Below, piece by piece: positions 1,919-32,236 of a stretch of DNA of 38,038 nucleotides. The position numbers were made by a program, and so were the translations under genes. The notes below the pieces were generated by a model that saw nothing but the letters and a program-made list of their open reading frames with translations, did no database searches and was not told the DNA's origin. This stretch comes from an uncultured Methanosarcinales archaeon (lineage in GTDB: Archaea; Nanobdellota; Nanobdellia; Woesearchaeales; CAZYIM01). The DNA lies in contig CAZYIM010000030.1 of NCBI GenBank assembly GCA_964647565.1, forward strand, positions 1 to 38,038, given 5' to 3'. Within the stretch, counting starts at the first letter, position 1; the number at the start of each line of letters is the position of its first letter.

Positions 1919-2345
1919 TGTAAAGGATATAATTGGGAAGGCTGTTATAGCTGAAGAAGAGGCTTATGAATTCTATACAGAGGCAGCAAAAAGAATTAAA
2001 TCTCCTAGTGCTGTCAATATGTTCGAGACTCTAGCTAAGGAAGAGCTTCGACACAAGGAATCACTAAAAAAACTTGATATTACTGTGCTAGACACCAAAA
2101 CTCTCAAACCCAACCAACAGATCAAGGTCTGTGAAAAGGTGTTATTAACTCCAGTCTCAGAACTAAAGGAAATCCAGGATGTATTTATCCTGGCCATCAA
2201 GAGAGAGCAGGAAGCTCATGATACCTATGCAGAACTGGCCAAAGTGTTCAAGCCAAGCACAGAAAAAGAGCTTTTCCTAGAGCTAGCCAAGATGGAAAAA
2301 GGCCATAAACGAGTACTAGAAAAAGAATACGACAGCTGCTTCTAG
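1908..2345 (+). CDS. Ferritin-like / rubrerythrin-family protein
   Basis: EEEAYEFY...EELRH and EQEAHDTY...EKGH motifs. Start moved to ATG 1908 (MKLSVKDII), overlapping the upstream gene. Confidence 0.85.
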   Translation: MKLSVKDIIGKAVIAEEEAYEFYTEAAKRIKSPSAVNMFETLAKEELRHKESLKKLDITVLDTKTLKPNQQIKVCEKVLLTPVSELKEIQDVFILAIKREQEAHDTYAELAKVFKPSTEKELFLELAKMEKGHKRVLEKEYDSCF

Positions 2346-3016
2346 TTTTTCTTGCAGACAAAGAATGCATGATCCTTTTCAAAAGGTGAGAGCTCTCTGT
2401 AATCTACGATAGTTATATGCTTTTCAAGCTCTGCTCTAACCTGCTTGAAGATCTCTTTAGGGTGCTTAGCCACATCTATACTTCTTGCTTTTAAGGCTAG
2501 GAGTCCAAAACCCCCTGTTTTCAGGAATTTGTCACAGTTCTTCAGAAAGATTCCCACTTGATCCCTTTGTGCAATATCTTGATAAACGACATCTACCTCA
2601 TTAACCTGTTGCTCATATTCTTCTGGATGATTAGCATCAGCGAGTATTGGAGCCATATTCTCCCTGGCCTCACAGAGGAATATCAGATCCCTCACAACAA
2701 CTGGTGCAAAGTCCATTGCAAAGACAAAGCCGTTCTTGCCGACCATATCTGAAACAAAAGAGGGTGTATAACCATGTGATGCACCCAGATAGAGGATAAT
2801 AGATTCTTCTTTTATTCCAATCTGGGAAATATCCTTTACTATTGCAGCCGCAAGCTTGCTGCGAGTTGGATCCCATTCTCGGAATTCAGTTCCTTTTTCC
2901 TTGAATAGTCTCTCTTCAAAAAATGATTTTCCAGGGGTCAAATTCTTAGTCAAGAGAATCTTTTTCTTGCCAACTCTTTCTTCAAACAGGTTAGGAAACT
3001 TCTTGACAGGATTCAT
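2342..3016 (-). CDS. flpA: Fibrillarin-like rRNA/tRNA 2'-O-methyltransferase
   Basis: REWDPTRSKLAAAI, LYLGASHGYTPSFVSD, DVVYQDIAQRDQ, KARSID motifs. Confidence 0.95.
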   Translation of the reverse strand: MNPVKKFPNLFEERVGKKKILLTKNLTPGKSFFEERLFKEKGTEFREWDPTRSKLAAAIVKDISQIGIKEESIILYLGASHGYTPSFVSDMVGKNGFVFAMDFAPVVVRDLIFLCEARENMAPILADANHPEEYEQQVNEVDVVYQDIAQRDQVGIFLKNCDKFLKTGGFGLLALKARSIDVAKHPKEIFKQVRAELEKHITIVDYRELSPFEKDHAFFVCKKN

Positions 3017-3744
3017 TTGAACTTAGCCTCCAATTCCTGCTTCAGCTTGTCGCCGATAAACTCTCCCTTGAAATAGTCAACCTTGGCTGCAATCGATATC
3101 TTGTCTGCCAATGCTCTCGAAGCCTTGCCTTTTTCATTCTTTTTGACCACTGCAATCAGATGATGGTTCACAATATGTCCATGTTTAGGTGCTTTTGCAC
3201 CTGTACGAACATGCCTAAACAGTGCTTTTTCAGCACCAAGGAGCTGTATTGTTGAACTTGACATAGAAGATAAGCGTTTTAAAGACCCTGCCTCATTAAG
3301 CAGCTTAGCCCCAATCAAAGCACCTGCAAGAGCCAAGACATTAGGACAATAGCCTTTCATGGTCTTTTCAAGGTATTTTTCAAGAGAATCTCTTAGTTTA
3401 TACAATTCACCTGCCTTTGTGGCAAGCTCTTTCATTGGCTCCAGATCCTCTTTCAACTCCTTACCCATTGAATCCTTTATCTTGAGCTCTGCCATCAACG
3501 TTTTCTTGTCTTTTTCAAGCACAAGCCTTACAAAGGCTTCATTGTCAGCTATGCTCTTGTACAATTCAGGAAAATAGAGTGCATACCAATCCCTAAGCCT
3601 CTTTGCCAGAGCATTGCACACTTTATTTAGTTCTTCTACGGTTGTAATAGCATGACAGATATAATTATCTTCAGTCACAGATTCCTTTATCTTCTGCTTA
3701 GCCAGCTTGATGCTCTCTTCTCTTATCTTTTTAAAGTCAGGCAT
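3013..3744 (-). CDS. nop5: Nop5/Nop56-family C/D box RNP subunit (short form: coiled coil plus Nop domain)
   Basis: RLRDWYALYFPEL, STIQLLGAEKALFRH...PKHG, RALADKISIAAKVDYF. ATGA overlap with flpA. Confidence 0.92.
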   Translation of the reverse strand: MPDFKKIREESIKLAKQKIKESVTEDNYICHAITTVEELNKVCNALAKRLRDWYALYFPELYKSIADNEAFVRLVLEKDKKTLMAELKIKDSMGKELKEDLEPMKELATKAGELYKLRDSLEKYLEKTMKGYCPNVLALAGALIGAKLLNEAGSLKRLSSMSSSTIQLLGAEKALFRHVRTGAKAPKHGHIVNHHLIAVVKKNEKGKASRALADKISIAAKVDYFKGEFIGDKLKQELEAKFK

Positions 3745-3953
3745 GGTGCTGGGAGATGGGTTTTCATTTATAAAGTTAGCTCTTTAATAATTTTTTACAA
3801 CTTTTTTATATTAAAAAAAAAAACCGAAAGTCTGTCAAATGGCATAGCCATTTTCCCCAACTTCCAATTTTTATCACTTTTCAGTGATAAAAATCGAAAG
3901 CTTTATAAACTAAAAACACCATAAATAGAGTATAAATCGCGAATTAGATTAAA

Positions 3954-6098
3954 ATGGGGCCAGAAAACAAAAGGATACCGAAAATAAAGGCAAATAGCTA
4001 TAAAGAGATTCTTAAGTATTTTGAAATCTACAAGCTATATGAGAATTTTGCTGCCAAGTCCATGTTCTATACATTCTCAGATAAATTGCATTTCTATAAT
4101 CCGAGAGACAGCATACTAGAGATGATTGTTGACAGGAAACAGCATCCACGACTGTTCAAGAAGGCTCTTGAGCTTAAAAAATATGTCAATCTTTCAGATC
4201 TGGTTAAGGAACCGCAGAAAGAAAAAGAAAGAAAGTTCTACTATAATATCAGCAGACCCGACCTTCAGTTAAAGCTAGGCTTTGGTAAAGCCATATACGA
4301 TTTCTTTCCCAAGATGGACCGTTTCAAATTCGAGAATTATTTCCTTAAAAAAGATACTACCTGTTTGGATGCATTGCATAGGCTAAGGCCTCAGCATTCT
4401 GATCCTGAAAAAAGCAAGGAGATCTTAAAACAAGTCATAGATCTCTTCCCAGCCCAATTCAGTATGGGTTCCGAGTATCTGGATAAGATCATTGCCAACA
4501 GCATGTTAAAGACAGAGGTCATGAAACAGAAAGAGTTGCCTGTAAAACGAAAGGGCATCCTCAGGCTAGATGTTAACAGGAAAAAAAGAAAACAGGCAAG
4601 AAAAAGAGCAAAACAAGGACAATTCATCTCAAAACAGCAATATATTGATCAGGGATTCACTCATGATTACAAGTTCATATGCGAGGTTGTGGACAATGAC
4701 AACCGAAAATTCAGGTATTTCATGAAAAACGTACAAGGTTTCTCTAAGCCACATTATGAAAAAGCAGTTACCAAATTAGTAAGCAAAGTTATCAAAAAAT
4801 ATAACTTCACACATGTATCAGTCCCACAATTCAGGGCTTCTGCATATACCCTACCAGGCATTAAAAAAGTGCTGCACAAGATGAATAGGCATAATGCCAT
4901 CCAAGTCATGCTACAGGATTCTAACAAGGTCTATAACCTGCCCGCCCAGTATCTCAATGCAGACGGCAAGCTTAATATCCAAGGCATTTCAAAACTTGAG
5001 GAGATGTGCACGCCAGACAGGAACTTCCTGGTGTTCGAGCTCATGACAAATGGTGAGCTGCTTACTAACAGACTGGACAGGCAAAGACACGCGCCAAATA
5101 GGAGATTTGAGATATTCAAGAACCTTAATGATGTTGTTATAGACATGCAGTATGTTCTTTATGCAGAAGTCAAAAAACAGGCACCATCACTTCCAGAAGC
5201 AGACTATAAAATAGATTTAAAACGCTCAGTAGGAAAAGGAATGGCTGACAGAAAATTCTTTAGATTGTTCAACAAGCTGTTTGGCAATAAACTTAATGAA
5301 TACTACAACAGGAAAGATGGTTGGGGTAAAGGCAACTCCATCAATAAGGCATTCTGCCATAATGACCTAAACCCTGGTAACCTCAATGTCTCAGATTATC
5401 ATAACAGTCATAAATTTGAGATTGCAGACTGGGAAGCCGCAGGATATGGTCTTGGATTTAATGACCTGGTCAAATATGCATACAGCAGCAAAAGCCTGCT
5501 AAGAGGTAAGAGACAAGAAGTCATTGATGACTTTATTGTCAAGCGCTTCAAAGACATTGCATATGAAAAGCTTTCCAAGATCAAGAAAAAGCACAAGAAA
5601 GCTAAGAAAATGGAGACTCGTGCTAGGAAAAAATTCAAGAAAGCAAAAACCCTAGATGAAAAAAGAAAGGTCAATAGGCAAATCAAGAAGTGGAGCGAAA
5701 TCAAGGAATTCTATGACTTGAATGAAGCCAAGATAGAAAATTTCAACACAGAGAATATCCAGTATCATGTAGGCCAGGTTCTAGGCAAGAGATATGAGAA
5801 CAAATACGGAAGAGCATATGTTGGTGAAGCCAGAGATCTTGTCAAGATGACTATGATCTACAGCAAGATAAGATCAGCGGGAATAACTTATCATGCCGCT
5901 GAGAAAAACAATCTCTTTGGAGCTGGCAACTCTGAATTGCAATCTATAAGGAAAAATCTGAAAAGCGCATATACTATGACTAATTATTTCTTGAACAAGG
6001 CAGAGACAGAAAAAAACAAGAGAGAACATAAAAGATTAAGAGAATTCCAAAAAGAGATCAAAAACCTTTCTGTAGCATATACAGCCAAAAGATTGTAA
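3954..6098 (+). CDS. Large basic protein with an APH/choline-kinase-like phosphotransferase domain
   Basis: Brenner-type motif FCHNDLNPGNL (5358-5381) followed by IADWEAAGYG and DL. Very Lys/Arg-rich. N-terminal half not recognised. Confidence 0.65.
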   Translation: MGPENKRIPKIKANSYKEILKYFEIYKLYENFAAKSMFYTFSDKLHFYNPRDSILEMIVDRKQHPRLFKKALELKKYVNLSDLVKEPQKEKERKFYYNISRPDLQLKLGFGKAIYDFFPKMDRFKFENYFLKKDTTCLDALHRLRPQHSDPEKSKEILKQVIDLFPAQFSMGSEYLDKIIANSMLKTEVMKQKELPVKRKGILRLDVNRKKRKQARKRAKQGQFISKQQYIDQGFTHDYKFICEVVDNDNRKFRYFMKNVQGFSKPHYEKAVTKLVSKVIKKYNFTHVSVPQFRASAYTLPGIKKVLHKMNRHNAIQVMLQDSNKVYNLPAQYLNADGKLNIQGISKLEEMCTPDRNFLVFELMTNGELLTNRLDRQRHAPNRRFEIFKNLNDVVIDMQYVLYAEVKKQAPSLPEADYKIDLKRSVGKGMADRKFFRLFNKLFGNKLNEYYNRKDGWGKGNSINKAFCHNDLNPGNLNVSDYHNSHKFEIADWEAAGYGLGFNDLVKYAYSSKSLLRGKRQEVIDDFIVKRFKDIAYEKLSKIKKKHKKAKKMETRARKKFKKAKTLDEKRKVNRQIKKWSEIKEFYDLNEAKIENFNTENIQYHVGQVLGKRYENKYGRAYVGEARDLVKMTMIYSKIRSAGITYHAAEKNNLFGAGNSELQSIRKNLKSAYTMTNYFLNKAETEKNKREHKRLREFQKEIKNLSVAYTAKRL

Positions 6099-6099
6099 C

Positions 6100-7008
6100 C
6101 TATTTCTCCTTTAGCTTCAGGTAAAAAGTAGGACCTATCATCTCATTGACTGAAGAGATTATGTTATCTATCTCCATCAGGAGGCGGGTATTGATAACCT
6201 TCTTGGATTCTACCAACTTATCTATGTCCTGACCTATCTTGACCCTCTTGTTATAAAAATTCAGGAACTTGGAAAGGTTAAAACTGTAAAACAACTCATA
6301 ATACTCTCTTACACAGCTGTTGGTAGCCTTTAAAACCTCCATAATAGAGTCATTTCCAGTCTTATTCTTCTCAATGACCTTGCTTAAGTTCTTATAGTGT
6401 CTGCCGAGCTTGTGCAGCTTGAACAGGATCGCATACATCAATGGCTTGGAGGATTCCTCCTCTACGTTCTCCTGGAGCATGATACGTCTGCAATATGCAA
6501 GAAACTTGGCCAAAGTCTCGTAGTTAGAGAGGACACTGTTCACGCCGGGCCCTTTCTTTAAGATCAACTGAACACATTCTTCACCCATGTCCAAGACCAG
6601 AAGAAAGCTCTTCCGTATCATGTTATCGTATTCACCTATCTCTGTCTCTGCAAGCTTTTTTACTGTCACCATATCTGATTTCTGCTCGACAATTTCAAGA
6701 CCTACAAAACGGTTCAATGCGTTCTTTACAGATTCAAATTCTTCTTGAGTCTTGTATTTGAAGTCTACCCGGTCATATCCTTTAAGGAAAAGAGCTCCGA
6801 GAATATGCGTTGTTAGGGCGGAGATGCCAGTTATATCAAAGGAAATTGATCTGGATTCTTTCTTGATCTCGGTCTGTATCAGAAGCCCGTCAGGGCTCTC
6901 AATGAGATCGATTTCATCACCCTTTACAATCTTTTTTGCCTTCACCCATTTGCTGGGCAGTGAGACAACCAAGGTTGTTGGTCCGTGTTGCATGATCTTA
7001 CGTTTCAT
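6100..7008 (-). CDS. AbrB/MazE/SpoVT-domain plus PhoU-like transcriptional regulator
   Basis: MKRKIMQHGPTTLVVSLPSKWVK...KGDEI AbrB N-terminus, LKGYD and GLEIVEQ motifs typical of archaeal PhoU-type regulators. Confidence 0.85.
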   Translation of the reverse strand: MKRKIMQHGPTTLVVSLPSKWVKAKKIVKGDEIDLIESPDGLLIQTEIKKESRSISFDITGISALTTHILGALFLKGYDRVDFKYKTQEEFESVKNALNRFVGLEIVEQKSDMVTVKKLAETEIGEYDNMIRKSFLLVLDMGEECVQLILKKGPGVNSVLSNYETLAKFLAYCRRIMLQENVEEESSKPLMYAILFKLHKLGRHYKNLSKVIEKNKTGNDSIMEVLKATNSCVREYYELFYSFNLSKFLNFYNKRVKIGQDIDKLVESKKVINTRLLMEIDNIISSVNEMIGPTFYLKLKEK

Positions 7009-7221
7009 TGGAAATCACCAAGATTTTCAATGTCCCAGAATTTTTTTAAAATTCTCAGGACATAAGATAAACATATTAAGTTCTCATATAAATATCTTTC
7101 GGAAATATAGTTATATAATTATCCATATATATAGTGTATGGAGAAAATACTTATATCTCAGGATACTACTTATTAGTGAAATTAAATAAACATACAAAAC
7201 AACCCAAAGGAGGACAAAAAA

Positions 7222-7974
7222 ATGAAAAAAACCACAATCGGGCTCTTGACAGCACTTCTGCTTGCAGGAGGCGTAGGAGCAAAATCAGGAATAGAACAAG
7301 CAGTGGCCCAAGAAGCACAAAAACCGAAGCAAGAACAACAGGTACGATATGGTGAAGAAGTTAATCATTCAGGCATCATGCTAGGATATGGTTTAGATCT
7401 AAGAAACACATACGAAGAAGAGAAGGACAAAAACGGCAAAAAAACAGGCAGGGCATGGGTAAGCACAAACTGGATGAGGTTTGACCACAAAGGAACATAC
7501 GATACCCTTTGGAACTTTTTCAAGGGTTTGTCAAAAGACGATGAACTGAACTTTAAGCAGAACAAAAGGGCTGATGGATTCAATGTTGGTTGGGAATATA
7601 ACACCAGCAAAGAAGACTCAACCTTCAAATTCGATGTCAAAGAACCCTTTGCATCGCCTGAGAAAGTCAATTGGAGAAAAGATGTCCTTGATGGAAAAAA
7701 GGTAGACATTTTGAGACTCGAAGGCATGAAGCTCTACAACAGCGGACACGACTATAACCTTGCAAATGTAGATTTCATATCAGAGGATGAAGGAAAGTCA
7801 TGGAACAGAGTGATCTGTGAATACAAGCCCATCGGACGCCACTTCGGCTCAAGCGGATTCCTGGACTTGCTCAAGAAAAGTAATGGAATGCTATACCCTA
7901 AAAAGTACTGGGCGGTTGAAAGCCAACATAACGTCCATGGAATCGACAAATACTTCCAGAGGTTCGGGAAATAA
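7222..7974 (+). CDS. Secreted hypothetical protein
   Basis: Signal peptide MKKTTIGLLTALLLAGGVG, AGGAGG SD, 250-aa ORF, T-rich tract after the stop. Confidence 0.8.
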   Translation: MKKTTIGLLTALLLAGGVGAKSGIEQAVAQEAQKPKQEQQVRYGEEVNHSGIMLGYGLDLRNTYEEEKDKNGKKTGRAWVSTNWMRFDHKGTYDTLWNFFKGLSKDDELNFKQNKRADGFNVGWEYNTSKEDSTFKFDVKEPFASPEKVNWRKDVLDGKKVDILRLEGMKLYNSGHDYNLANVDFISEDEGKSWNRVICEYKPIGRHFGSSGFLDLLKKSNGMLYPKKYWAVESQHNVHGIDKYFQRFGK

Positions 7975-7996
7975 ATTTTTTTTATTTTCATTTTTC
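7975..7996 (+). terminator. Oligo-T archaeal-type terminator candidate
   Basis: Long T runs immediately after the TAA of the 250-aa gene. Confidence 0.4.
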
Positions 7997-8091
7997 CCCC
8001 CTCAAACCAACATAAAAATAATACTTGCTTTGGAAAAAAGAGGTGATTTTTTCTTGGGTAGAAAAAACAATAAAACAAAGGTGAATAAAAA

Positions 8092-8733
8092 ATGAAAAAT
8101 GGAATGAAAAACATAATGAAGATCGGCCTATTGGGCACATTACTGGCTCTTGGAGGCGGTCTCGAAAGCAAGCTTCAAGCCCAGGACAAACCAAAAACAA
8201 GTCAGGGAAATACCGCAGAACAAAGGATGTCTAATTACTATGGTGTGTATCCCAGAAACACAAATATGGCTGCACCCATCTACAAAGAGCACACTGCACT
8301 GAAAGAATACAACAAGGTGTGGGAACAATACAAGAACGTGCCAAAAGACGGGGATTACCTGCTGGAAAGAGGAAAAAAGATCGATGGAAATTGGTATGAT
8401 ATATACAAGAATATTGGCCCGGGCAAGAATCGTGGAAAGAGAATCCGGATACTACGAAGCTCAACCTGTCCAAGGACAATTAGATGGACCAAGGTTAATA
8501 TTGACGGAAAGGAAAAGGATAGTCTCAGTCTGTATCAAATCTCCACAGGATGGGGTACCCATCTTGATTTGGGTTTCGTAAAAAAAGGCAGTTCATATGA
8601 ACGGTTGATAGCCGCATCAACCATGACAACCAAAGTAGAAGGTACTCAAGCCCATGGCGTGAGTCAGGTATGGACATTTTCAAAGGAAGGGAACAGTCTG
8701 AAGACAACAGATACACACTATCAGCAGTTTTAA
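8092..8733 (+). CDS. Secreted hypothetical protein
   Basis: Signal peptide ...IGLLGTLLALGGGLESKLQAQ, AAGGTGA SD. Confidence 0.8.
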   Translation: MKNGMKNIMKIGLLGTLLALGGGLESKLQAQDKPKTSQGNTAEQRMSNYYGVYPRNTNMAAPIYKEHTALKEYNKVWEQYKNVPKDGDYLLERGKKIDGNWYDIYKNIGPGKNRGKRIRILRSSTCPRTIRWTKVNIDGKEKDSLSLYQISTGWGTHLDLGFVKKGSSYERLIAASTMTTKVEGTQAHGVSQVWTFSKEGNSLKTTDTHYQQF

Positions 8734-8778
8734 TCTGTTTTTCGATTCGAATTAAAAAATTATTGAAGGTGAAATAAA

Positions 8779-9693
8779 ATGAAAGGAAAAAATCTTTTGA
8801 TAGGAACAATAGCAACAGTGCTTACACTAGGAAGCGCTTTTGGCAACGGATTGGAAAGCAAAGTCTACTCACAAAATAATGTAACCCCTAAAGCAAAACA
8901 AGAACAACAACAGAAGGCAAAAGATATGAGCCTCCTACAAGCGATACGAGACGTAGAGAAATCAAGAAAAGGCGATAAGATAGATCAGAAACAGATTATG
9001 CAATATCTGCAAGACATAGAGAGCTCAGGCAAACTTGGAAAAGTAGGAAAAGAAATAGTCAGAGCAGCAAATGATATGTTAACAAAAAAAGGTCTGTCGA
9101 AAAGCTATATGAACTATAAGTCGTTCACTAACAAAGAAAATGTCTTATCGATTGGAAGGAAATGGAATGATCCAAATCACCCCCGGATCAAATGGGGAGA
9201 TACAAAAAAATACGAAATCGAAACAATAGAAGGTGGGAGTCCAGGAGTAAATTACTATGTTTACGAAAAAGTGAACCCCTTATTAGAGTTAGTTAAAGGA
9301 AAAGATTATTTCAAGCATGGCCAAATGTCTCAGAAGGAATGGAATCATCCAGACGAGGCTAAGCGACTTAACTCGCACAAATTCTACGGGGATATCGTAA
9401 AGATACACCAGCCTGATAAATATAGTCTAAGAATTTCATACCAAAAAGATCAGGAAAGATTTGATCTCAAACATTTGGGAGATAACTGGCTACACGGTGG
9501 CAGACTGGATCCAGTACATGTACTTTGTATAGATCTAACCCCCCAAGGATACACGGTATATGAAGAAACATTCGAACGTGGTATAAACGCAACAAGGGCA
9601 GATATCTACGATGGCGGAAAGAACCCAAAAGAGACTGAAGTCAAGAAAAGCACATTCAAAGACATATCTAACAAAGCATTAGATGAGATCTAA
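8779..9693 (+). CDS. Secreted hypothetical protein
   Basis: Signal peptide MKGKNLLIGTIATVLTLGSAFGNGLESKVYSQ, AAGGTGA SD. Confidence 0.8.
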   Translation: MKGKNLLIGTIATVLTLGSAFGNGLESKVYSQNNVTPKAKQEQQQKAKDMSLLQAIRDVEKSRKGDKIDQKQIMQYLQDIESSGKLGKVGKEIVRAANDMLTKKGLSKSYMNYKSFTNKENVLSIGRKWNDPNHPRIKWGDTKKYEIETIEGGSPGVNYYVYEKVNPLLELVKGKDYFKHGQMSQKEWNHPDEAKRLNSHKFYGDIVKIHQPDKYSLRISYQKDQERFDLKHLGDNWLHGGRLDPVHVLCIDLTPQGYTVYEETFERGINATRADIYDGGKNPKETEVKKSTFKDISNKALDEI

Positions 9694-9778
9694 ACATGTG
9701 CAGGAAATTTGGCCCAACGCTAAGACAAATTTTTATTTTTTTATCTTTAAAATCATAAACAAAATTAGGTGATAAAAA

Positions 9779-10255
9779 ATGAAAAAGACACTAACCATTG
9801 CTGCTATCCTGGCTGCTTTGACAGTAGGAGCAGCAGCACAAGACAAACCATCAACTCAAAATATGGCAAAGCAGACAAAGGCAGCTATTAGCGCTTATCA
9901 AAAGGCTGACAGTCTCAAGGACAGAGACAAGGCAATAGCTCATCTGAAAAAATCTATTAATATCTATCTCAGTAAAAAGCTCGACCAATCACAACTGAAG
10001 AAAGCAGGATTCAAAGATGGTATAATAGTGGATGACATGTATTGGAAACTTGGAGGCCTATTAGAACAGAAAGCCAACGAGATGGCAAGAAAAGACAGTT
10101 ACTCAGATAAGCAGATGTTCCAAGCATATAATGATGCGATGATCGCCTATGCAAACATAGGGCGATTCCTGCCTGGTTCAGGAAAAAATAACGCCGCAAG
10201 CACAAAATTGGATAAGGTGCTTATTCCACAAGCTATGAAATACGTAAAGAACTAA
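9779..10255 (+). CDS. Secreted helical (TPR-like) protein
   Basis: Signal peptide MKKTLTIAAILAALTVGAAAQ, AGGTGA SD, helical pattern (KAIAHLKKSI; DDMYWKLGGLLE) resembling the next gene. Confidence 0.7.
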   Translation: MKKTLTIAAILAALTVGAAAQDKPSTQNMAKQTKAAISAYQKADSLKDRDKAIAHLKKSINIYLSKKLDQSQLKKAGFKDGIIVDDMYWKLGGLLEQKANEMARKDSYSDKQMFQAYNDAMIAYANIGRFLPGSGKNNAASTKLDKVLIPQAMKYVKN

Positions 10256-10268
10256 AAGGTGAGAAAAT

Positions 10269-10904
10269 ATGAAAAAATTAACCATCCCAATTATTGCAGC
10301 GATCTTGTTAACAGGCACCACTGTAAATGCACAGATCAACGTAAGGAAGATGTTAGGAAAGGCAACACACGTTGAACAGATAGATGAAAAAGCACAGGCT
10401 CAGTTCAAGATGGCCAAGCAGTTTGAGAAACAGTCAGAAAAGTTCGAGGGAAGGGACAGAAACTCTTTCATCAACCAGGCTGTCAGGGCTTATGATGTAG
10501 TGATTGCAGACCCAGATGCCAACTACACTTTAAAGGCGCTCTCACACTGGAAGATTGCCAATTTGCAGTATTCAGTCGATAACTTCAGTGGAGCCAGAAA
10601 GACCCTGAAGAAGATTCTCAACAACTACACAGAACTTTTGGACAGCGGACTTGCCAGGAAAGAGGGTATTACAGACAAGCAGTTAGGTGATGACGCATAC
10701 TATCTAGCGGGTCAGATCGCAGAGAAGCAGGCTCTACTCTCTAACAGCCCAAGAAGCACCAGATATAATATCCTGAAAAGGGCAAAGAAGAACTATGAGT
10801 TAGTATCTGAACAGTTCCCAAAAACACAAAGGGTTGGAGATGCAAAAAAGAACCTTAAGAATATGAAGGCTGAGTTCCAATTGCTTCAGAAGTATGTAAA
10901 GTAA
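10269..10904 (+). CDS. Secreted tetratricopeptide-repeat protein (BamD/CpoB-like repeats)
   Basis: Signal peptide ending VNAQ. ALSHWKIA...ARKTLKKILNNY, DDAYYLAGQI and AKKNYELVSEQFPKT TPR patterns. Confidence 0.75.
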   Translation: MKKLTIPIIAAILLTGTTVNAQINVRKMLGKATHVEQIDEKAQAQFKMAKQFEKQSEKFEGRDRNSFINQAVRAYDVVIADPDANYTLKALSHWKIANLQYSVDNFSGARKTLKKILNNYTELLDSGLARKEGITDKQLGDDAYYLAGQIAEKQALLSNSPRSTRYNILKRAKKNYELVSEQFPKTQRVGDAKKNLKNMKAEFQLLQKYVK

Positions 10905-10909
10905 TTTTC

Positions 10910-11557
10910 TTATTTGCTTTTTGTCAATCCATAGACCACATTGTATGCATTCATTAGATCCTTCTCTTTAAACACAATTACTATCTCAGGAATGCAGCTC
11001 ATGATTTCCATTATGCTTACATTATGGATCGTTAACTCATTTGTAAGCACTGCTATAATGCCAGGAGTTTCCCAGGCACGTTCATCAAGATGCAAATTGA
11101 TTTCTGCAAGACCTTTGTCAATTTGATTTATCTTATGCGGGGCAAGTATCTCTTTAGCTTTTTTCAGATTCTTCTCATCGAGGATAATTTTTATGGCTTC
11201 ATTAGCCTGTGCTATTCTGAGAACTTCATTCTTATTGAAATTGACTAGAGAAAAAAGCTTAGGTAGACGTTTGCCTATCTCTGTGTCCTTCTCCACAGTC
11301 AAAGATGCAATATGATTCTTAGATGACATCTTAGCAAAACCAATCACATCCAGTGCCTTTGAGAACGCTCCTCTAGGCATGTCTGTCTCATAGCGCCTAA
11401 TAGCACTGATAAGAGCATTAGGAGGTGCATCCAGGCGAGCTTTTTTCTGTATATAGATGGCTAACGCCCGTTTATTTACAATACCTCTTTCAAGGCCTTT
11501 CCTCAGGATCGGATCAATATCAAGATACTTCCAAACCTCTTTGGTAATATTTGCCAT
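10910..11557 (-). CDS. Archaeal ACT-domain-containing putative regulator
   Basis: LERGIVNKRALA...ALISAIRRY N-terminus and ETPGIIAVLTNELTIHNVSIMEIMSC ACT-like C-terminus. Start taken at ATG 11557. Confidence 0.75.
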   Translation of the reverse strand: MANITKEVWKYLDIDPILRKGLERGIVNKRALAIYIQKKARLDAPPNALISAIRRYETDMPRGAFSKALDVIGFAKMSSKNHIASLTVEKDTEIGKRLPKLFSLVNFNKNEVLRIAQANEAIKIILDEKNLKKAKEILAPHKINQIDKGLAEINLHLDERAWETPGIIAVLTNELTIHNVSIMEIMSCIPEIVIVFKEKDLMNAYNVVYGLTKSK

Positions 11558-11643
11558 AAATAGCAAAAATCAAACAAATTATAAAAATGTTTGCTTTTTT
11601 TGTCACAAGCTTTATAAAAAATATCTGGTTTCAATAACGCACT

Positions 11644-11785
11644 TTAGGGATTAACCTATTAATGGACTAGGATAAATGGCAAAACCAATCAGAACCCAAA
11701 GTCTGTCTCTCGTCCTAGTCCTAACTATCTAAAACGCTTTCCACTTTTCTGGAAAGCTACTCAAGATGTATAGGTTAATCCCTAA
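11644..11785 (+). ncRNA. Candidate structured RNA / cis-regulatory leader (three-way junction)
   Basis: Perfect 16-bp inverted repeat 11644-11659/11770-11785 encloses a 10-bp helix (11664-11673/11712-11721) and an 8-bp hairpin (11736-11757). TATA-like TTTATAAA at about 11611-11618. Confidence 0.55.
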
Positions 11786-11827
11786 CCCACCATTTAACCA
11801 TTAATAGAATCACAACGGAGGAAGAAA

Positions 11828-12034
11828 ATGAATGAAATGTACGGAGTCTATCCAGCGAATTTTGGAATGATGCATGAGGGATTATATACCTTTAACCATC
11901 CAGACAGCGGCGATATTGGTGAGATTGTAATAGATATGGCAAAAAAGGCACAACCTGCACAAACACGAAATAATCAGGCCACCCGGTTTGCTACATCATT
12001 ATACCACTACATAATCCATCTAAAAAGACATTGA
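11828..12034 (+). CDS. Small hypothetical protein (68 aa)
   Basis: Strong GGAGG SD upstream of the ATG, no recognisable motif. Confidence 0.5.
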   Translation: MNEMYGVYPANFGMMHEGLYTFNHPDSGDIGEIVIDMAKKAQPAQTRNNQATRFATSLYHYIIHLKRH

Positions 12035-12096
12035 TCCGCCTGCACACCTTCAATTAATCCGAAAATCTTTAAAACCCCCACTATTTCTATTAGCGT

Positions 12097-13200
12097 ATGT
12101 CAGATATAAGTGCAAAAGAAAGATTCAAGCTCAAACAATTTGTAAAGGAGCTCAAGCAATATAGAGGACGCCATACCGAACTCATAACAGTTTATGTGCC
12201 AGCAGGATATGAAATCAGCAAGATAATAAACCACATCTTTCAGGAGCAAGGAACTGCATCCAATATCAAAAGTAAAAGCACAAGGGACAATGTCATTACA
12301 GGCCTTGAGAAAATGATGCAGCATCTTAAGCTTTTTCCAAAAACGCCTGCAAATGGGCTTGCAGTTTTCTCAGGAAATGTGGCAGAGAGAGAAGGCCAAC
12401 AAGATTTCAAGGTCTGGTCAATGGAACCACCCATACCTATCAACCAAAGATTGTACAGATGCGACAAAGAGTTTGTGCTCGACATTCTAGAAGAGATGGT
12501 GGCTGAGAAATCAATCTATGGATTAGTAGTGATGGACAAAAGAGAAGGTAATGTAGCCCTGCTCAAAGGAAAGACCATAATACCCTTAACCTCCAAGACA
12601 TCCGCAGTCCCAGGCAAGACGCGAGCAGGAGGACAATCGTCAGCTCGCTACGAGCGTCTGAGAGATGGTGCTGCAAAAGACTTCATGAAAAAAATCGCAA
12701 GTTGTATGAAAGATGAATTCCTAGAAAACAAGGACCTGAAAGGTATAATAGTTGGGGGGCCTGGACACACAAAGAATGAATTTGTCGAAGGAAATTTTAT
12801 CACAGACCAGATCAAGAAAAAAATCATCGGAATAAAAGACCTAAGCTACACTGGAGAATTTGGGCTACAAGAGCTTCTAGAGAAAAGCGAAGATGTATTA
12901 GCAGAAGAAGATGTGATTGAAGAAAAGAAGCTTATGCAAAAATTCTTCGGCTATCTGGCCAAGTCACCAGGTAAGGTTAACTATGGAAAAGACGCAGTTC
13001 TCGCAGACATAAAATTAGGGGCTGTAGATACTATCCTCCTCTCGGAAGCACTGGACGAGGCAGATATTGAGCTGTTTGAAACTGAAGTAAAACCTTTCGG
13101 TACAAAGATAGAGATTATATCAACAGAAACCAGAGAAGGAGTCCAACTAAGGGACATAGGCAAGGTAGCAGCCATCCTCAGATATGAAGTACATAGGTAG
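12097..13200 (+). CDS. prf1: Archaeal peptide chain release factor 1 (aRF1)
   Basis: RGRHTELITVYVP, TASNIKS, YRCD, GGQSSARYER, AAILRY motifs. Confidence 0.97.
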   Translation: MSDISAKERFKLKQFVKELKQYRGRHTELITVYVPAGYEISKIINHIFQEQGTASNIKSKSTRDNVITGLEKMMQHLKLFPKTPANGLAVFSGNVAEREGQQDFKVWSMEPPIPINQRLYRCDKEFVLDILEEMVAEKSIYGLVVMDKREGNVALLKGKTIIPLTSKTSAVPGKTRAGGQSSARYERLRDGAAKDFMKKIASCMKDEFLENKDLKGIIVGGPGHTKNEFVEGNFITDQIKKKIIGIKDLSYTGEFGLQELLEKSEDVLAEEDVIEEKKLMQKFFGYLAKSPGKVNYGKDAVLADIKLGAVDTILLSEALDEADIELFETEVKPFGTKIEIISTETREGVQLRDIGKVAAILRYEVHR

Positions 13201-20530: not shown

Positions 20531-21553
20531 ATGGCCATTCCCGAAAAAGAACTTAGTAGATTCAGAAAAGCTCTCAAGAAGAGCCAGAAACCTATTTTCT
20601 TCTTTGATAATGACCCTGACGGCCTGTGCTCATTCCTACTATTATATAGGTATATCCAAAGGGGGCGAGGTATTCCGGTAAAGACCACTCCGGGTCTGCA
20701 GCCAGTTCTGTTAAGAAAAGTAGAGGAACATTGTCCAGATGCAGTATTCATCCTAGATGTTGCCATAGTAGATCAAGCATTTTTAGATGGAATCGAAGTA
20801 CCAGTCTATTGGTTGGACCATCACAAGTTCGAAAAACAACAAATAGAGAACTATTTCAATCCATTGATAGGCAATAAGAAGGATGAAAGACCTACAAGTC
20901 TCTGGGCATACAAGATTGTCAAGCAAGACCTCTGGATTGCGATGACAGGTATGGTTGGAGATTGGTTCCTGCCAAAATTCAAAGATAAATTTGTTGAACA
21001 ATACCCCCATCTCCTTAAACCTGATGTTGATACTCCTGAAAAGGCCCTGTTTGAAAGCAGGATAGGCCAGCTTTCAAGGATATTCTCATTCAATCTCCAG
21101 GGTAAACATTCTGATGTGATGGCTGCAATCAAGATCATGACCCGTATTGAAGATCCTGAAGAGATTATGAAAAAGAAAACAGCCAAAGGAAGGTTTGTAT
21201 ATCGGCGTTATGAGAGAATAGATAATATCTACCAACAACTTCTTAATTCTGTAGACACTTCTGATGAAAAGATGATAGTACACATATATGAGGAACTGGG
21301 AGTGTCTCTGACAGCAGAGATTAGTAACGAGCTTCTATATAGATTTCCAAAAAGAGTCAATGTTATTGCCCGGGAGCGTAATAACGAGATGAAATGCTCA
21401 CTTAGAGGCAAACAGGTGAACCTGCTCAAGATAATAAAAAAAGCCTTAACAGGTGTTGAAGGCTATGGTGGCGGCCATGTACACGCCTGCGGAGCCTGCA
21501 TCAAGAAAACAGATTTCAAAAAGTTCTTAAAAAATATCAGAAAACAGCTTTAA
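20531..21553 (+). CDS. DHH/DHHA1-family phosphoesterase (RecJ/NrnA-like)
   Basis: DNDPDG, ILD, LDHH, CSLRG and GGGHVHACG motifs. Confidence 0.9.
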   Translation: MAIPEKELSRFRKALKKSQKPIFFFDNDPDGLCSFLLLYRYIQRGRGIPVKTTPGLQPVLLRKVEEHCPDAVFILDVAIVDQAFLDGIEVPVYWLDHHKFEKQQIENYFNPLIGNKKDERPTSLWAYKIVKQDLWIAMTGMVGDWFLPKFKDKFVEQYPHLLKPDVDTPEKALFESRIGQLSRIFSFNLQGKHSDVMAAIKIMTRIEDPEEIMKKKTAKGRFVYRRYERIDNIYQQLLNSVDTSDEKMIVHIYEELGVSLTAEISNELLYRFPKRVNVIARERNNEMKCSLRGKQVNLLKIIKKALTGVEGYGGGHVHACGACIKKTDFKKFLKNIRKQL

Positions 21554-23013
21554 ACTTTCTTAACAATTCCATGATTCGCATTGACTTCTATCATATCTCC
21601 ATCCTTGAGAGCTTTCGTAGCAATCTTGGTGCCTATGACACAGGGAATTCCAAGTTCCCTTGCAACAATGGCAGCATGAGAGGTTATGCCACCCTCATCA
21701 GTCACGATTGCTAAAGCCTTTTTTAGTATTGGCATAAATTCAGGTCTAGTCATGCTCGTTATAAGTATATCATCCTGCTGCATCTTGCCAAATTCCTCTG
21801 GAGAATTGATGATTCTTGCCTTACCCACGACTCTACCAAGATTGGCAACCATGCCATGCAGGTCTCCGAATACTGCTCTCGAATCAAAGGTTTCAAACTC
21901 ATTCAAAAAAACTTTCGCATCTTCAAAATTAAGAACGCCTGGTTTATCAGGACCAAAAAAAGCAACAGTAAGCTGTAATCTTTTTGACAAAACACTAGAA
22001 TCTATAGTGCCTCCATCTAAAAGGTTTTGTAGTTCAAAGCCTGTTGAATATTCAAGCAGCTTCAGTGGCACATCAAATCTTCTGGACGCATCTTCCAGAA
22101 ATAGGGAAATATAATGATGTGCAAGAATATTAGCTTCTTTCCTTTTGTCCTGCCAATATGTATACTCTTCAATAAGAGTCACCAATAACCGTAATCTTTT
22201 GTTGAATTTCAATTCATCAATCAGTTTTTGTTTCTGGATTTGCGCAGCTTTTAGGTTCTTGAAATAATTGGAAATGAACTTTTCAACAGCTCGGGGTGAA
22301 GCTGCATGCTCACCCATCCTGTCAAGAAAATATGTTTCATCAAGTATTATTGCACGGGAATAGTTATTCTGGATCCAGTGCCATTTTTTCTGGTGTTTCT
22401 TGATTTCTGCAGTAACGTCCATACCATCAATGAAATTTCTAGCTATCAAGCATAATTCATATTTCTCTCTACATAGAAAAGATTCAGCCACAGGATTCGT
22501 CAGGACAGACATTATCTTAAAAAAGTCAGTATCTCTTTTAAATTTCTTAAGATGAAGAGTCAGCTCTTTTCTCATCTCAGTTTCTAAAAAATAACCCATC
22601 ATATCTGCAATCATAGGTAATGCATATTCCCGAATATATGCCAACGAGAACTTTTTATATAATTCGCTAAATTCCTGATCAGAAAGTTCTGAATAGTTAG
22701 TATCATCCATTTCAGCACAGACATCATAAAACTCCTTCGCTATAGGCCTCCATTTAGCAATCAGATTTTTTGTATAATCAGGATCTTTGGACTCTGCTTC
22801 CAAAACCAACCTGCCGATCCTGAACATATCATTCTCATCATAACCATATTGGAAAAAATTCTTTCTGCAAATAGTGATTACTGTGTTAATGCAAAAATCA
22901 TTCTGCCGAGCAAGTTCTACAGTTGCAAGATGGTTAACATACCAGATATAATGATACTTGCCAGGACCCTCTTGGATCCAAGGCTTTATCCCCTTTAAAT
23001 ATTTCAGGTTCAT
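21550..23013 (-). CDS. PEP-utilizer mobile (phospho-His swivel) domain protein with N-terminal helical domain
   Basis: C-terminal GKARII...DILITSMTRPE...VTDEGGITSHAAIVARELGIPCVIGT...DGDMIEVNA. No ATP-grasp or TIM-barrel motifs seen. Confidence 0.88.
   Translation of the reverse strand: MNLKYLKGIKPWIQEGPGKYHYIWYVNHLATVELARQNDFCINTVITICRKNFFQYGYDENDMFRIGRLVLEAESKDPDYTKNLIAKWRPIAKEFYDVCAEMDDTNYSELSDQEFSELYKKFSLAYIREYALPMIADMMGYFLETEMRKELTLHLKKFKRDTDFFKIMSVLTNPVAESFLCREKYELCLIARNFIDGMDVTAEIKKHQKKWHWIQNNYSRAIILDETYFLDRMGEHAASPRAVEKFISNYFKNLKAAQIQKQKLIDELKFNKRLRLLVTLIEEYTYWQDKRKEANILAHHYISLFLEDASRRFDVPLKLLEYSTGFELQNLLDGGTIDSSVLSKRLQLTVAFFGPDKPGVLNFEDAKVFLNEFETFDSRAVFGDLHGMVANLGRVVGKARIINSPEEFGKMQQDDILITSMTRPEFMPILKKALAIVTDEGGITSHAAIVARELGIPCVIGTKIATKALKDGDMIEVNANHGIVKKV
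21590..21651. repeat. 62-bp exact direct repeat, copy 1 (copy 2 at 23050-23111)
   Basis: atcatatctccatccttgagagctttcgtagcaatcttggtgcctatgacacagggaattcc is present identically at both positions. Confidence 0.9.
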
Positions 23014-25997: not shown

Positions 25998-26006
25998 CTT
26001 TATCTC

Positions 26007-26153
26007 CTATGCAGGATCGTAGATACCCCACATCCAATCCTCCATATCGGTCTCAGCATCTTTTTCAGCCTTGATTCTTTGCCGTTCAAACTGCTCTTCA
26101 TCATCTTTTTTCTTTAAAAACCAGAGCCATTTTTCTGGTGTAATAATTCTCAT
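26007..26153 (-). CDS. 48-aa small protein (MRIITPEKWLWFLKKKDDEEQFERQRIKAEKDAETDMEDWMWGIYDPA), absent from the ORF track
   Basis: AGAGGTGA SD, ATGA overlap with the upstream stop, and its TAG overlaps the SD of the next gene. It fills the operon gap exactly. Confidence 0.75.
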   Translation of the reverse strand: MRIITPEKWLWFLKKKDDEEQFERQRIKAEKDAETDMEDWMWGIYDPA

Positions 26154-27694
26154 GAACAATCACCTCTTTCTTCAATGAGTCTGACAACTCCGTTATCAGC
26201 ATCAACTTCTACAACGTCTCCATCCCGAAAGATTTTGGTGGCCATCCTGGTTCCTATTACACAAGGCTTGCCCAATTCTCTGCTTACAATGGCTGCATGG
26301 CATGTTATGCCACCCATGTCCGTCACTATGGCAGAAGCCTTCTGCATGGCCACCACTATCTCCGGTTCTGTCATATAAGAGACAAGAATATTACCGTCTT
26401 CCATCTTAGGAAGATCCTTTGGACTGTTGATGATCTTGACAATACCTTTGGCATAACCGTTTCTGGCGCAGTTGCCCTTGAGCTCACGAATATCGCTGTC
26501 GACAGCCTCTTCGGGCTCATATCGAAGGCTCTTGACAAAGCGCTTGGCTTGATCACCACAGAATATCTTTGATTTTCCATTTTCAATATAATGAAAACTG
26601 TGTTTCCATCTTTCTTCGAGTTCTTTTTTGTTGACTCTTTTTCCATTAAGTGCAGGCCCGATCTCCCAGGGCAACATTTTTCTTAACAACCTGATGTTGA
26701 TACCCAACCGTGATGAGATCTCCTGGAAGAGAGGCTCGACACAATAATAAGAATAAAACATGGCTTCCTTGCTAAAGCTCTTGACATAGATGGTATCTTC
26801 TGCCAGGTTACAAAGCTGCAATAATCCAGCACCAGGTTCTATAGCTGCAATAAGTTCCTCTTTTTTTCTTCTAAGTTCTCCTGGCTCAGTTGTAATCTTA
26901 TATAATTCCTGCTCAAGATAGCATCTCCCCTTTTTAAGAAGCTCTTGCATAGCCTCGAGGAAATGTAGATCACTTAAGGCAGGACCACCAACTCCATATG
27001 GAAGCCATCTATAGTTTTCAGCATGTTGCTTTAGCTTATCTTTGATAACTGTCTCTGTCAGCTCTTTTTCTGATATCAATTCCAATGCAATTCGCAAGAA
27101 ATCCTCTTTTTCCTTGGCTGACTGGTTCTTTTCAACAGGTGTTGAAAGAACTGCAAAGACATTGTCTGCAATCAGATCCAATTGTTTCTTCTTAATACGA
27201 TCATCTAATTTTTTTAGAATATGATTTGTGTAAAGCTCACCAGAGGTCTCTATCAGCCACATGGGTCCACGTCTGATGTGGCTTTGGTTGCGAACATCTT
27301 CGAACTGATTATAGAGTTGTGCTAATTCTTGGTTACTACAGGTTTTAAGATCCTTTTTAAGAAGGTCTTCACTGCAATCTACAAGCTGTTTTGATAGATC
27401 TACGACTTCTTGATTGACTTTTTTTAGCTGTTCAGGATCATCAAGCAGAATTTTTAAGCAATTTTTAGCATTTGCCACCCATTCTTTCTTCTCAAAGACA
27501 TATTTTGCTCCGTCTTTAATGTATTCTGCACCCCCTTGTTTCATATTAGGAAAACCTATCTGTTCAAATTCAGTGGTTAGGCTATGGATAGGTGAAGCTG
27601 CAAATAGATAATGAGAACTTTCTGACTTTTCAACGACGAACCAGGATTCTTTAATCTTTGTCACCTCCAACAAGTTGTATCTTGACAGTGACAA
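26150..27694 (-). CDS. PEP-utilizer swivel-domain protein with N-terminal helical domain (start codon uncertain)
   Basis: VTDMGGITCHAAIVSRELGKPCVIGT motif. No ATG near the 5' end. A perfect GGAGGTGA SD (27661-27668) precedes an in-frame ATT at 27655. Confidence 0.85.
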   Translation of the reverse strand: MSLSRYNLLEVTKIKESWFVVEKSESSHYLFAASPIHSLTTEFEQIGFPNMKQGGAEYIKDGAKYVFEKKEWVANAKNCLKILLDDPEQLKKVNQEVVDLSKQLVDCSEDLLKKDLKTCSNQELAQLYNQFEDVRNQSHIRRGPMWLIETSGELYTNHILKKLDDRIKKKQLDLIADNVFAVLSTPVEKNQSAKEKEDFLRIALELISEKELTETVIKDKLKQHAENYRWLPYGVGGPALSDLHFLEAMQELLKKGRCYLEQELYKITTEPGELRRKKEELIAAIEPGAGLLQLCNLAEDTIYVKSFSKEAMFYSYYCVEPLFQEISSRLGINIRLLRKMLPWEIGPALNGKRVNKKELEERWKHSFHYIENGKSKIFCGDQAKRFVKSLRYEPEEAVDSDIRELKGNCARNGYAKGIVKIINSPKDLPKMEDGNILVSYMTEPEIVVAMQKASAIVTDMGGITCHAAIVSRELGKPCVIGTRMATKIFRDGDVVEVDADNGVVRLIEERGDCS

Positions 27695-31607: not shown

Positions 31608-31637
31608 AAAATCTTAGAATTTCAATCCAGGCACACC
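31608..31637. repeat. 30-bp exact duplicate of the srp54 3' end (other copy at 32231-32260)
   Basis: aaaatcttagaatttcaatccaggcacacc at both sites. Confidence 0.88.
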
Positions 31638-32231: not shown

Positions 32232-32236
32232 AAATC

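Follow-up and report, generated by a model that had tools for sequence, protein, structure and literature searches.

Positions 11644 to 11785 of the window, by which we mean the whole 38,038-nt stretch of DNA that was analysed, hold a sequence with perfect inverted repeats at its ends and two further hairpins between them. The sequence-only reading of this locus described the element as a three-way-junction RNA that encloses an 18-aa mini-ORF, and it offered as explanations a branched-chain amino-acid leader peptide, a type I toxin-like mRNA, a novel ncRNA or a MITE. The question that the locus raises is whether the element acts as RNA or as DNA or is the relic of an insertion, and, if it is transcribed, to which message it belongs. 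The genome is that of an uncultivated marine archaeon and is represented by an assembly of 86 contigs (2.68 Mb, 87% complete).

Results

The element folds into a three-way junction

The element is 142 nt long (11644-11785) and is built of three helices, P1, P2 and P3, arranged as a three-way junction. All of the helices proposed from the sequence alone were found there, as follows.

11644-11659, + strand: 5' arm of P1, 16 nt, perfect complement of 11770-11785, mean pair probability 0.95
11770-11785, + strand: 3' arm of P1, pairs with 11644-11659
11664-11673, + strand: 5' arm of P2, 10 nt, contains AGGA, mean pair probability 0.99 on the + strand
11712-11721, + strand: 3' arm of P2, pairs with 11664-11673 through nine Watson-Crick pairs and one G-U pair
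11736-11757, + strand: P3 hairpin, 8-bp stem (11736-11743/11750-11757) with a 6-nt loop, mean pair probability 0.975

P1 consists of 16 perfect pairs and ends where the next pair outward would be T-C. The G-U pair, the tenth of P2, had been said to favour the + strand, and it does form on that strand only, with a probability of 0.92 as compared with 0.0 on the - strand. The + strand RNA folds at -52.0 kcal/mol, against a mean of -24.3 kcal/mol for shuffled sequences (z -7.93), and the - strand RNA folds at -55.9 kcal/mol (z -7.30); for neither strand did any of 200 shuffles fold as well. The pairs of P1 to P3 retained probabilities of 0.95-0.99 when the element was placed within a 400-nt transcript. 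P3 read on the - strand scores as terminator-like, but just four T residues stand behind it.

The arms themselves are also in excess of expectation. Perfect inverted repeats with arms of at least 16 nt and a spacer of 30-400 nt occur 10 times in the 2.68-Mb genome, whereas about 0.53 would be expected from base composition, and two separate inner stems as large as those of the element arose in one of 20,000 shuffles of the P1 spacer. The fold is beyond chance by every test that we applied, and the feature is real. The composition of the stems, in which 33 of the 34 pairs are Watson-Crick, would be equally natural for a young DNA palindrome and for a selected RNA.

A strong promoter points at the base of the stem

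Promoter geometry was derived from ORFs rather than from a tRNA-based consensus, because ARAGORN reported only eight tRNAs. The positions of TATA hexamers and of Shine-Dalgarno (SD) sequences were surveyed in 1698 ORFs of at least 200 aa. The TATA-like hexamers have their first position at -31 to -28 relative to the ATG, most often at -30 (161 ORFs) and -29 (137 ORFs), which indicates that mRNAs are leaderless and that transcription begins about 30 nt past the start of the hexamer. The start of the SD 5-mer peaks at -11, within a range from -14 to -9. A 26-nt promoter matrix was then trained on 325 leaderless promoters of the genome, whose median score was 12.1 bits. It recognised the following box upstream of P1.

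11607-11619, + strand: BRE/TATA promoter box, hexamer TTTATA at 11611-11616, 13.0 bits, predicted start at about 11641

The TATA box that had been noticed in front of the element is therefore present, and by the matrix it is a strong one, since a score of 13.0 bits is reached by 1e-4 of random genome positions. BRE fixes the direction of transcription, and the box scored 13.0 bits on the + strand and 9.7 bits when read on the - strand. Counting 30 nt from the start of the hexamer, transcription is predicted to start at about 11641, some 3 nt before P1. Stable RNA genes of the same genome served as controls. Boxes of 16.7 bits at -28 and of 14.3 bits at -23 precede the 5S gene and the SRP RNA gene, respectively, and the promoters of the element, 5S and SRP RNA share the core CTTTATAAA; no such box was found near the RNase P RNA gene.

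Of the genome's 46 long inverted repeats, two have a strong promoter directed at the base of the stem, one being the element and the other a short palindrome with a 32-nt spacer on contig C26, so that the element is the sole multi-helix case in this set.

The predicted transcript leads into a 68-aa ORF

Three features follow the element on the same strand.

11786-11827, + strand: linker, 42 nt, unstructured, with GGAGG at 11817-11821, starting at -11 from the ATG
11828-12034, + strand: orphan ORF of 68 aa, likely to be the leader's cargo, with coding-like codon usage
12097-13200, + strand: aRF1 (peptide chain release factor), Pfam eRF1_1/2/3, ATG at 12097

The 68-aa ORF looks coding. Its codon-usage margin is 0.199, where real genes have a median of 0.19 and spurious ORFs reach 0.007 at their 95th percentile, and its GGAGG lies at the modal position of the genome, -11. 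No promoter of its own was found (the best + strand box scored 2.5 bits), and apart from the box that belongs to aRF1, the matrix detected no promoter of at least 5 bits on either strand between 11630 and 12110. Word-based searches returned no homolog of the ORF, near or longer; it is an orphan whose expression is putative. Three HMMER matches proved to be an artefact in which a single 22-residue repeat was counted several times, and a proposed relationship with the secreted protein encoded at 8092-8733 was discarded, as merely 8 of 14 residues match.

Transcription terminators of this genome take the form of oligo-T runs, exemplified by T8 after 5S and T5 at the end of the SRP RNA. No run of five or more T residues was found on the + strand between 11641 and the end of aRF1; the first T5 lies 11 nt past the aRF1 stop codon. 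We read the structured RNA as a leader because the promoter at the base of the stem is strong and points the right way and because no oligo-T terminator was found behind it. We give roughly an even chance to the proposal that the element is the 5'-terminal structured leader of the mRNA for the 68-aa ORF and not a stand-alone sRNA. Such a leader may stabilise or mark the message, a proposal that we hold with less assurance than the transcribed leader itself.

Several observations count against the leader reading. The - strand folds as well as the + strand, at the -55.9 kcal/mol given above. The region from the SD to the AUG is predicted to be unpaired with a probability of 0.58 when the element is present and of 0.581 when it is removed; the element thus makes no contact with the ribosome-binding site, control by SD sequestration is unlikely, and no regulatory logic is visible. 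The true MITEs of this genome share the shape of a closing stem with inner hairpins. The nearly complete Watson-Crick pairing noted above and the orphan state of the 68-aa ORF weigh in the same direction. Finally, the collections that we searched contain no recognisable homolog, and hence they give no sign of selection on the fold.

The 18-aa mini-ORF and a stand-alone RNA

One alternative hypothesis is that the RNA is built around the mini-ORF, either as a stand-alone small RNA, as a type I toxin mRNA or as a leader-peptide attenuator.

11676-11732, + strand: 18-aa mini-ORF, translation confirmed, judged to be no gene

The translation agrees with the one first given. What speaks for this hypothesis is the mere presence of an 18-aa ORF with a hydrophobic stretch at its end and the location of its AGGA and Leu/Val codons inside P2. 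However, an ATG ORF of at least 18 codons appeared in 546 of 5000 dinucleotide shuffles of the element (11%), the AGGA starts at -7 and so falls outside the SD peak of the genome (-14 to -9), and codon usage favours no coding frame. The mini-ORF is not supported as a gene, and from these sequence properties we take it to be untranslated.

The same properties undo the proposal of a branched-chain amino-acid leader peptide, which fails additionally because the locus has no terminator/antiterminator pair and because an orphan small ORF and aRF1, rather than an amino-acid biosynthetic operon, lie downstream. The comparison with a type I toxin mRNA did not hold up either. The peptide has 18 residues, about 10 of them hydrophobic, its codon usage does not resemble that of a coding sequence, and the genome-derived matrix found no - strand promoter of at least 5 bits within 11630-12110, so that a type I system would lack its antisense partner here. 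The idea of a novel ncRNA survived in one half: a structured + strand RNA is supported in silico and, like a stand-alone archaeal sRNA, it has its own promoter, but no oligo-T terminator follows the element, which points to a leader instead of a free RNA. Taken together, we regard an sRNA, toxin mRNA or attenuator as barely credible at this locus.

Neighbouring genes and the hypothesis of a regulatory leader

The arrangement described earlier, with an ACT-domain gene diverging on the - strand and a small ORF and prf1 (aRF1) downstream, was confirmed.

10910-11557, - strand: ACT-domain gene, divergent, five-helix N-domain followed by tandem ACT domains, leaderless

The ACT gene has its own box for a leaderless start (11580-11585 on the - strand, 13.1 bits, -28 from the ATG) and therefore does not need the box at 11611. 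Similarly, aRF1 has a 13.0-bit box at 12068 with a predicted start at 12098. Both genes are predicted to be leaderless, each from its own promoter, and aRF1 is probably reached in addition by read-through from the upstream promoter.

The ACT protein matches Pfam ACT_7 and the NCBIfam aspartate-kinase C-terminus, both below cut-off; its AlphaFold model (pLDDT 89) has a Foldseek match to aspartokinase regulatory domains (E 2e-8). The N-domain consists of five helices and has no assigned nucleic-acid-binding fold. The protein belongs to a multi-paralog family present in 188 of 401 genomes of the order, a tally that includes six flagged as unpublished.

A metagenome scan yielded 24 loci with relatives of aRF1 (35-77% identity). 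In six of the closest (L031, L032, L034, L035, L036 and L046), aRF1 is directly divergent from a three-gene operon; the spacer is 48-143 nt in the five loci where it was measured, and the ORF calls overlap in L031. The two genes of the operon nearest to aRF1 correspond to those at 3013-3744 (Nop5-type) and 2342-3016 (fibrillarin) of the window. Because these adjoin aRF1 in the closest relatives, about 8.3 kb (3745-12096) are extra in this genome. The block encodes two proteins of unknown family (714 aa and 250 aa), one of 302 aa whose N-terminus is weakly AbrB/MazE-like, and four predicted secreted proteins; the element lies in it too, between the ACT-domain gene and the 68-aa ORF. The ACT gene, the small ORF and three other neighbours stand beside aRF1 in none of the 24 related loci. 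Neither a virus nor a defence island accounts for the block, since 10 of its proteins gave no PHROGs match and five gave no PADLOC match.

This neighbourhood bears on another hypothesis, namely that the element is a purpose-built leader regulator, riboswitch-like or bound by a protein such as the ACT protein, that tunes the small ORF and read-through into aRF1. A long P1 at the start site closing a three-way junction is typical of many cis-regulatory RNAs, and here such a P1 lies directly at the predicted start site, behind a strong dedicated promoter and opposite a gene for ligand-sensing tandem ACT domains. The hypothesis would also require some means of acting on expression, yet no expression platform was found: the element neither pairs with the SD and AUG nor alters their accessibility, and no oligo-T terminator is available. 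Moreover, no inverted repeat comparable to the element lies near the gene in 29 scanned loci of ACT homologs, and the custom covariance model built on P1-P3, which was run on 28 of them, gave a best E of 0.12. Together with the lack of any Rfam match and of conserved junctions and loops, both presented below, and with the missing nucleic-acid-binding fold of the ACT protein, this makes a purpose-built regulator unlikely.

The element has no detectable relatives

By BLAST and by the covariance model the element is single-copy in its own assembly, and no partial copies were found at contig ends; the concern that it might be one of many dispersed copies was not borne out. No Rfam family was recognised either. 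There was no match at the gathering score in the window or region, and with E values up to 10 across 4227 families the best overlapping matches reached 17.7 and 15.5 bits, as compared with cut-offs of 75 and 50. Eleven other hairpin-closed elements of the genome likewise had no Rfam match. The element is not a divergent 5S, SRP or RNase P RNA, as all three were found on other contigs.

Searches beyond this genome gave the same outcome. BLAST against 40 relatives of the same order returned fragments of at most 34 nt, and the covariance model run against 150 other genomes of the order gave three matches at chance level (E 0.08-0.59), which were rejected as homologs because they fold differently (z -0.9 to -1.7). 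The 24 metagenome loci with aRF1 hold no homolog of the element, by the covariance model included. The pattern of both arms at a spacing of 95-125 nt had no match in 185,579 species genomes, the 16-mer arm had 10 chance matches in viral contigs, all without the partner arm, and the element was not found among phage and plasmid records. Because no homolog was found, there is no conservation of junctions or loops to set beside the fold. In contigs from four marine DNA runs (two studies) the sequence is identical to the window, at a depth of 2-5. Of the eight runs found to contain the stretch, none is listed as RNA. Among the available species genomes, this one is the sole representative of its family. 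As judged from these collections, the element is an orphan that is seen in the genome of one population only, and appears to be young and lineage-specific.

The same marine contigs are informative about a role of the element as DNA. One could envision an inverton, a pair of operators brought together by looping, or a cruciform that acts on the divergent promoters, given that perfect 16-bp inverted repeats surround 110 bp next to two such promoters and that each strand folds as DNA at -28.0 kcal/mol. The contigs of the four runs contain the locus in one orientation, with no variant, empty site or inverted form at their depth of just 2-5, and a Pfam scan of 17 ORFs of the window revealed no recombinase domain. 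A flip would also switch nothing obvious, because the inner 110 bp contain no promoter of at least 5 bits on either strand, and the inner hairpins would be left unexplained. We think that a DNA-level site is very unlikely.

A possible MITE-like origin

MITEs are defined, in the review PMC10969869, as sequences shorter than 500 bp whose terminal inverted repeats measure about 4-30 bp, and flanking duplications in young copies, a multicopy state and stable folds of the transcripts are given there as further marks. For one family, copy numbers are 1-22 per genome, and there are families that have only a single copy in certain strains (PMC10969869). The proposal that the element is a MITE was right about size, terminal repeats and fold: a 142-bp intergenic sequence with 16-bp perfect arms and a stable transcript fold (-52.0 kcal/mol, z -7.9) agrees with this description. 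The proposal does not extend to copy number or ancestry, as the assembly (86 contigs, 87% complete) contains one copy of the element, and neither a parent IS nor a sister copy was found; a duplication of at least 3 bp is absent as well.

The genome does contain look-alikes that we count as proven mobile. A 189-nt MITE is present on contigs C40 and C8 in copies that are 96% identical, with inner hairpins, perfect arms of 17 bp and 13 bp and perfect 9-bp duplications. On C25 there is a 121-nt MITE whose 16-bp arms enclose two inner hairpins; its duplication matches at 8 of 9 positions. Partial copies of both the 189-nt and the C25 MITE occur at contig ends. The only IS found in the assembly is an 890-bp element on C3 (36514-37403), which encodes a DDE_Tnp_1 transposase and is flanked by a perfect 9-bp duplication; its ends resemble those of the C25 element and are unrelated to the ends of the element studied here. 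No IS carrying the latter ends was found, a 13-mer of the ends being exact only in the two arms of the element, and a single match with one mismatch is within chance. No IS630-type or ISL3-type transposase was detected in the 87% complete assembly.

The absence of a target-site duplication, noted from the sequence alone, is correct for duplications of at least 3 bp. It need not hold for shorter ones, because the ends read T-TA-GGG...CCC-TA-A and could hide a palindromic TA within P1, although a TA at this place is expected by chance with a frequency of 1/16.

These observations suggest another explanation for the element, that it is a solo MITE or foldback relic, inserted fortuitously at a TA just behind the small ORF's start site and now carried as a functionless passenger in the transcript. 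Near-perfect stems and the lack of homologs would suit a recent insertion, removal of the element leaves an ordinary leader of 47 nt, and the ends permit a hidden TA duplication. A solitary copy has parallels in the strains with one copy mentioned above, and the genome contains mobile elements of similar look in the C40/C8 and C25 MITEs and the IS on C3. Unlike those MITE families, however, the element has left no partial copies at contig ends, and its two-arm pattern, at a spacing of 95-125 nt, is missing from all of the 185,579 species genomes. No IS630-type transposase was found in what is an 87% complete assembly, nor was an IS with the same ends. The stem base also lies within about 3 nt of the predicted start; no duplication-bearing element shows such a coincidence, and the three with 9-bp duplications score -8.2, -7.6 and -2.6 bits for a stem-base promoter. 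We regard a functionless relic as possible, though on balance improbable. A mobile origin as such is plausible, and origin and present role are separate questions.

Discussion

One possible course of events that would accommodate these results is the following. A foldback or MITE-like sequence may have inserted at a TA just behind the start of what was formerly a leader of about 47 nt. The strong BRE/TATA promoter with its hexamer at 11611 would now start + strand transcription about 3 nt before P1, and the nascent RNA would fold at once into P1, P2 and P3 with about -52 kcal/mol. As no oligo-T terminator follows, the transcript would continue through the open 42-nt linker with its Shine-Dalgarno sequence into the 68-aa ORF, and probably extends into aRF1. 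The element would not gate the ribosome-binding site, and the mini-ORF would stay untranslated. Its likely effect would be exerted in cis at the RNA level: a stem flush with the 5' end might shield the message from decay or processing that depends on that end, or might serve as a handle for a binding protein. Bacterial mRNAs are classically protected against 5'-end-dependent decay by a strong helix at the very 5' end, and archaea possess 5'-to-3' exonucleases of the beta-CASP type.

A more elaborate scenario is that the three-way junction, flush with the 5' end, is a newly arisen and lineage-specific cis-regulatory RNA, recognised by a ligand or by the tandem-ACT protein, that ties both the level of an orphan small protein and read-through into aRF1 to the supply state of amino acids. 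We consider this unlikely. If it were true, it would let us see how an archaeal lineage with small genomes can turn a palindromic insertion into a regulatory leader by domestication.

Archaea whose mRNAs are mostly leaderless seldom have long structured 5' leaders, and almost nothing is known of control at the RNA level in the uncultivated archaeal orders with small genomes. If the element affects the fate of the mRNA, it would provide a clear natural example of a structured leader of very recent origin that sits precisely at a transcription start and may derive from a mobile palindrome. If it is a mere passenger, it shows that an insertion is tolerated between a promoter and a ribosome-binding site. 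The general significance is limited for now, since the element is an orphan in one metagenome-assembled genome.

How does the element compare with systems already described? In Haloferax volcanii, according to a dRNA-seq study (PMC4983044), there are genes with both a leaderless transcript and one whose 5' UTR is very long, at times with a gene for a small protein within it, and only 97 leaders exceed 150 nt. The situation of aRF1, which has its own leaderless promoter and probable read-through from upstream by way of the small ORF, resembles these dual transcripts, those of Haloferax having been measured and that of aRF1 being predicted from its sequence.

Riboswitch aptamers for purines and TPP offer a second comparison. 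As in these, P1 of the element closes a junction with two further helices and stands at the very start of the leader. Unlike them, the element has no Rfam match, conserved junction, expression platform or homologs.

The leaders of ompA, ermC and aprE are closer in layout. They carry 5'-terminal stabilising stem-loops that act in cis without a ligand, and their effect has been proven in bacteria by measurements of half-life. In these leaders, as here, a helix a few nucleotides from the 5' end (a predicted end, in the present case) precedes an open linker that carries the ribosome-binding site. The bacterial stem-loops are simple hairpins, whereas the element is a 142-nt three-way junction, is archaeal and is known through its sequence.

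The last comparison is with prokaryotic MITEs that are co-transcribed into mRNAs. Neisseria Correia elements are an example. Others, named in the review PMC10969869, are ERIC, QMITE2 of Coxiella and SM1-SM4 of Sulfolobus, and the review also states that MITEs can occupy 5' leaders and alter the fate of the mRNA. The element differs from such MITEs in being single-copy, with no duplication of at least 3 bp and no parent IS or sister copy found, and from the duplication-bearing elements of its own genome in that a predicted transcription start falls at the base of its stem. It resembles the co-transcribed MITEs in its size below 500 bp, its terminal inverted repeats, its intergenic location and the very stable fold of its transcript. 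We take the element to be a structured leader or a MITE-like palindrome, so far unique as an individual sequence.

An additional block beside the aRF1 gene

In the source genome, a segment of about 8.3 kb (window 3745-12096) separates the nop5-fibrillarin operon from the aRF1 gene, which encodes a peptide chain release factor (12097-13200, + strand). The block is missing in six close relatives, in which the operon and aRF1 are directly divergent; in the five relatives where the spacer between them was measured, it spans 48-143 nt. The contents of the block are as follows.

3745-12096: unknown proteins of 714, 302 and 250 aa, and four predicted secreted proteins
10910-11557, - strand: gene of the ACT-domain protein
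11644-11785, + strand: the hairpin-closed element, a predicted three-way-junction RNA
11828-12034, + strand: the orphan 68-aa ORF

An integrase signal was not found in the block, and its proteins gave no matches to PHROGs (10 proteins searched) or PADLOC (5 proteins searched).

The family of the ACT-domain protein is present in 188 of the 401 genomes of the order, with 1-5 matches per genome among those listed. Because the predicted structure combines a five-helix N-terminal domain without an assigned fold with an aspartokinase-like tandem-ACT module, we can only infer that the protein acts as a regulator.

Direct repeats and tRNA genes

Within window 21545-26372, a 207-nt segment occurs four times in direct orientation at intervals of 1.46-1.67 kb, with 61-76% identity to the reference copy; this probably reflects paralogous genes arranged in tandem. 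Elsewhere, a 30-nt sequence at 31608-31637 recurs without mismatch and in direct orientation at 32231-32260, 623 nt further on. ARAGORN in plain mode reported only 8 tRNA genes in the whole genome, with the anticodon undetermined in several; the tRNAs may be intron-bearing, split or poorly assembled.

Mobile elements and inverted repeats of the source genome

Two elements, of 189 nt (contigs C40 and C8) and 121 nt (C25), are true MITEs. They are listed with an IS of the same genome; locus coordinates are local.

L059:301-489 (C40:2679-2867): 189-nt MITE, perfect 9-bp target duplication
L064:301-489 (C8:38019-38207): 189-nt MITE, perfect 9-bp target duplication
L058:301-421 (C25:26036-26156): 121-nt MITE, 16-bp arms, duplication matching at 8 of 9 positions
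L109:1131-2020 (C3:36514-37403): 890-bp IS, 14-bp terminal repeats, perfect 9-bp duplication, DDE_Tnp_1 transposase

Incomplete copies also occur: one of the 189-nt MITE, at a contig end, in addition to its two full copies, and two of the 121-nt MITE, located at contig ends or close to them. The terminal repeats of the IS are similar to the ends of the C25 MITE, and its transposase is the sole one of its kind found in the assembly. The boundaries of the IS are provisional, since the longest ORF call extends beyond the right terminal repeat.

A further family, with closing ends of 14-17 nt containing AAGCATTCA, gave 15 BLAST segments on 10 contigs (L055:301-438, L056:301-445, L057:305-428, and sites on C2, C3, C11, C22, C24, C32, C44 and C61). 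Its inner motifs are conserved, and its inner hairpins are variable and differ in length. No Rfam match was obtained, no clear duplication was found at the copies, and the promoters are weak or inconsistent. The copies may represent MITEs or, alternatively, a family of RNAs.

A 208-nt element with perfect 27-bp arms (C79:1247-1454) resides on a contig of 4.7 kb; no duplication, promoter or further copy of it was found. At C10:48830-49050, perfect 22-bp inverted repeats surround an AT-rich core of TA repeats. The arms are similar to archaeal origin-recognition boxes, and the site may therefore be the chromosomal replication origin.
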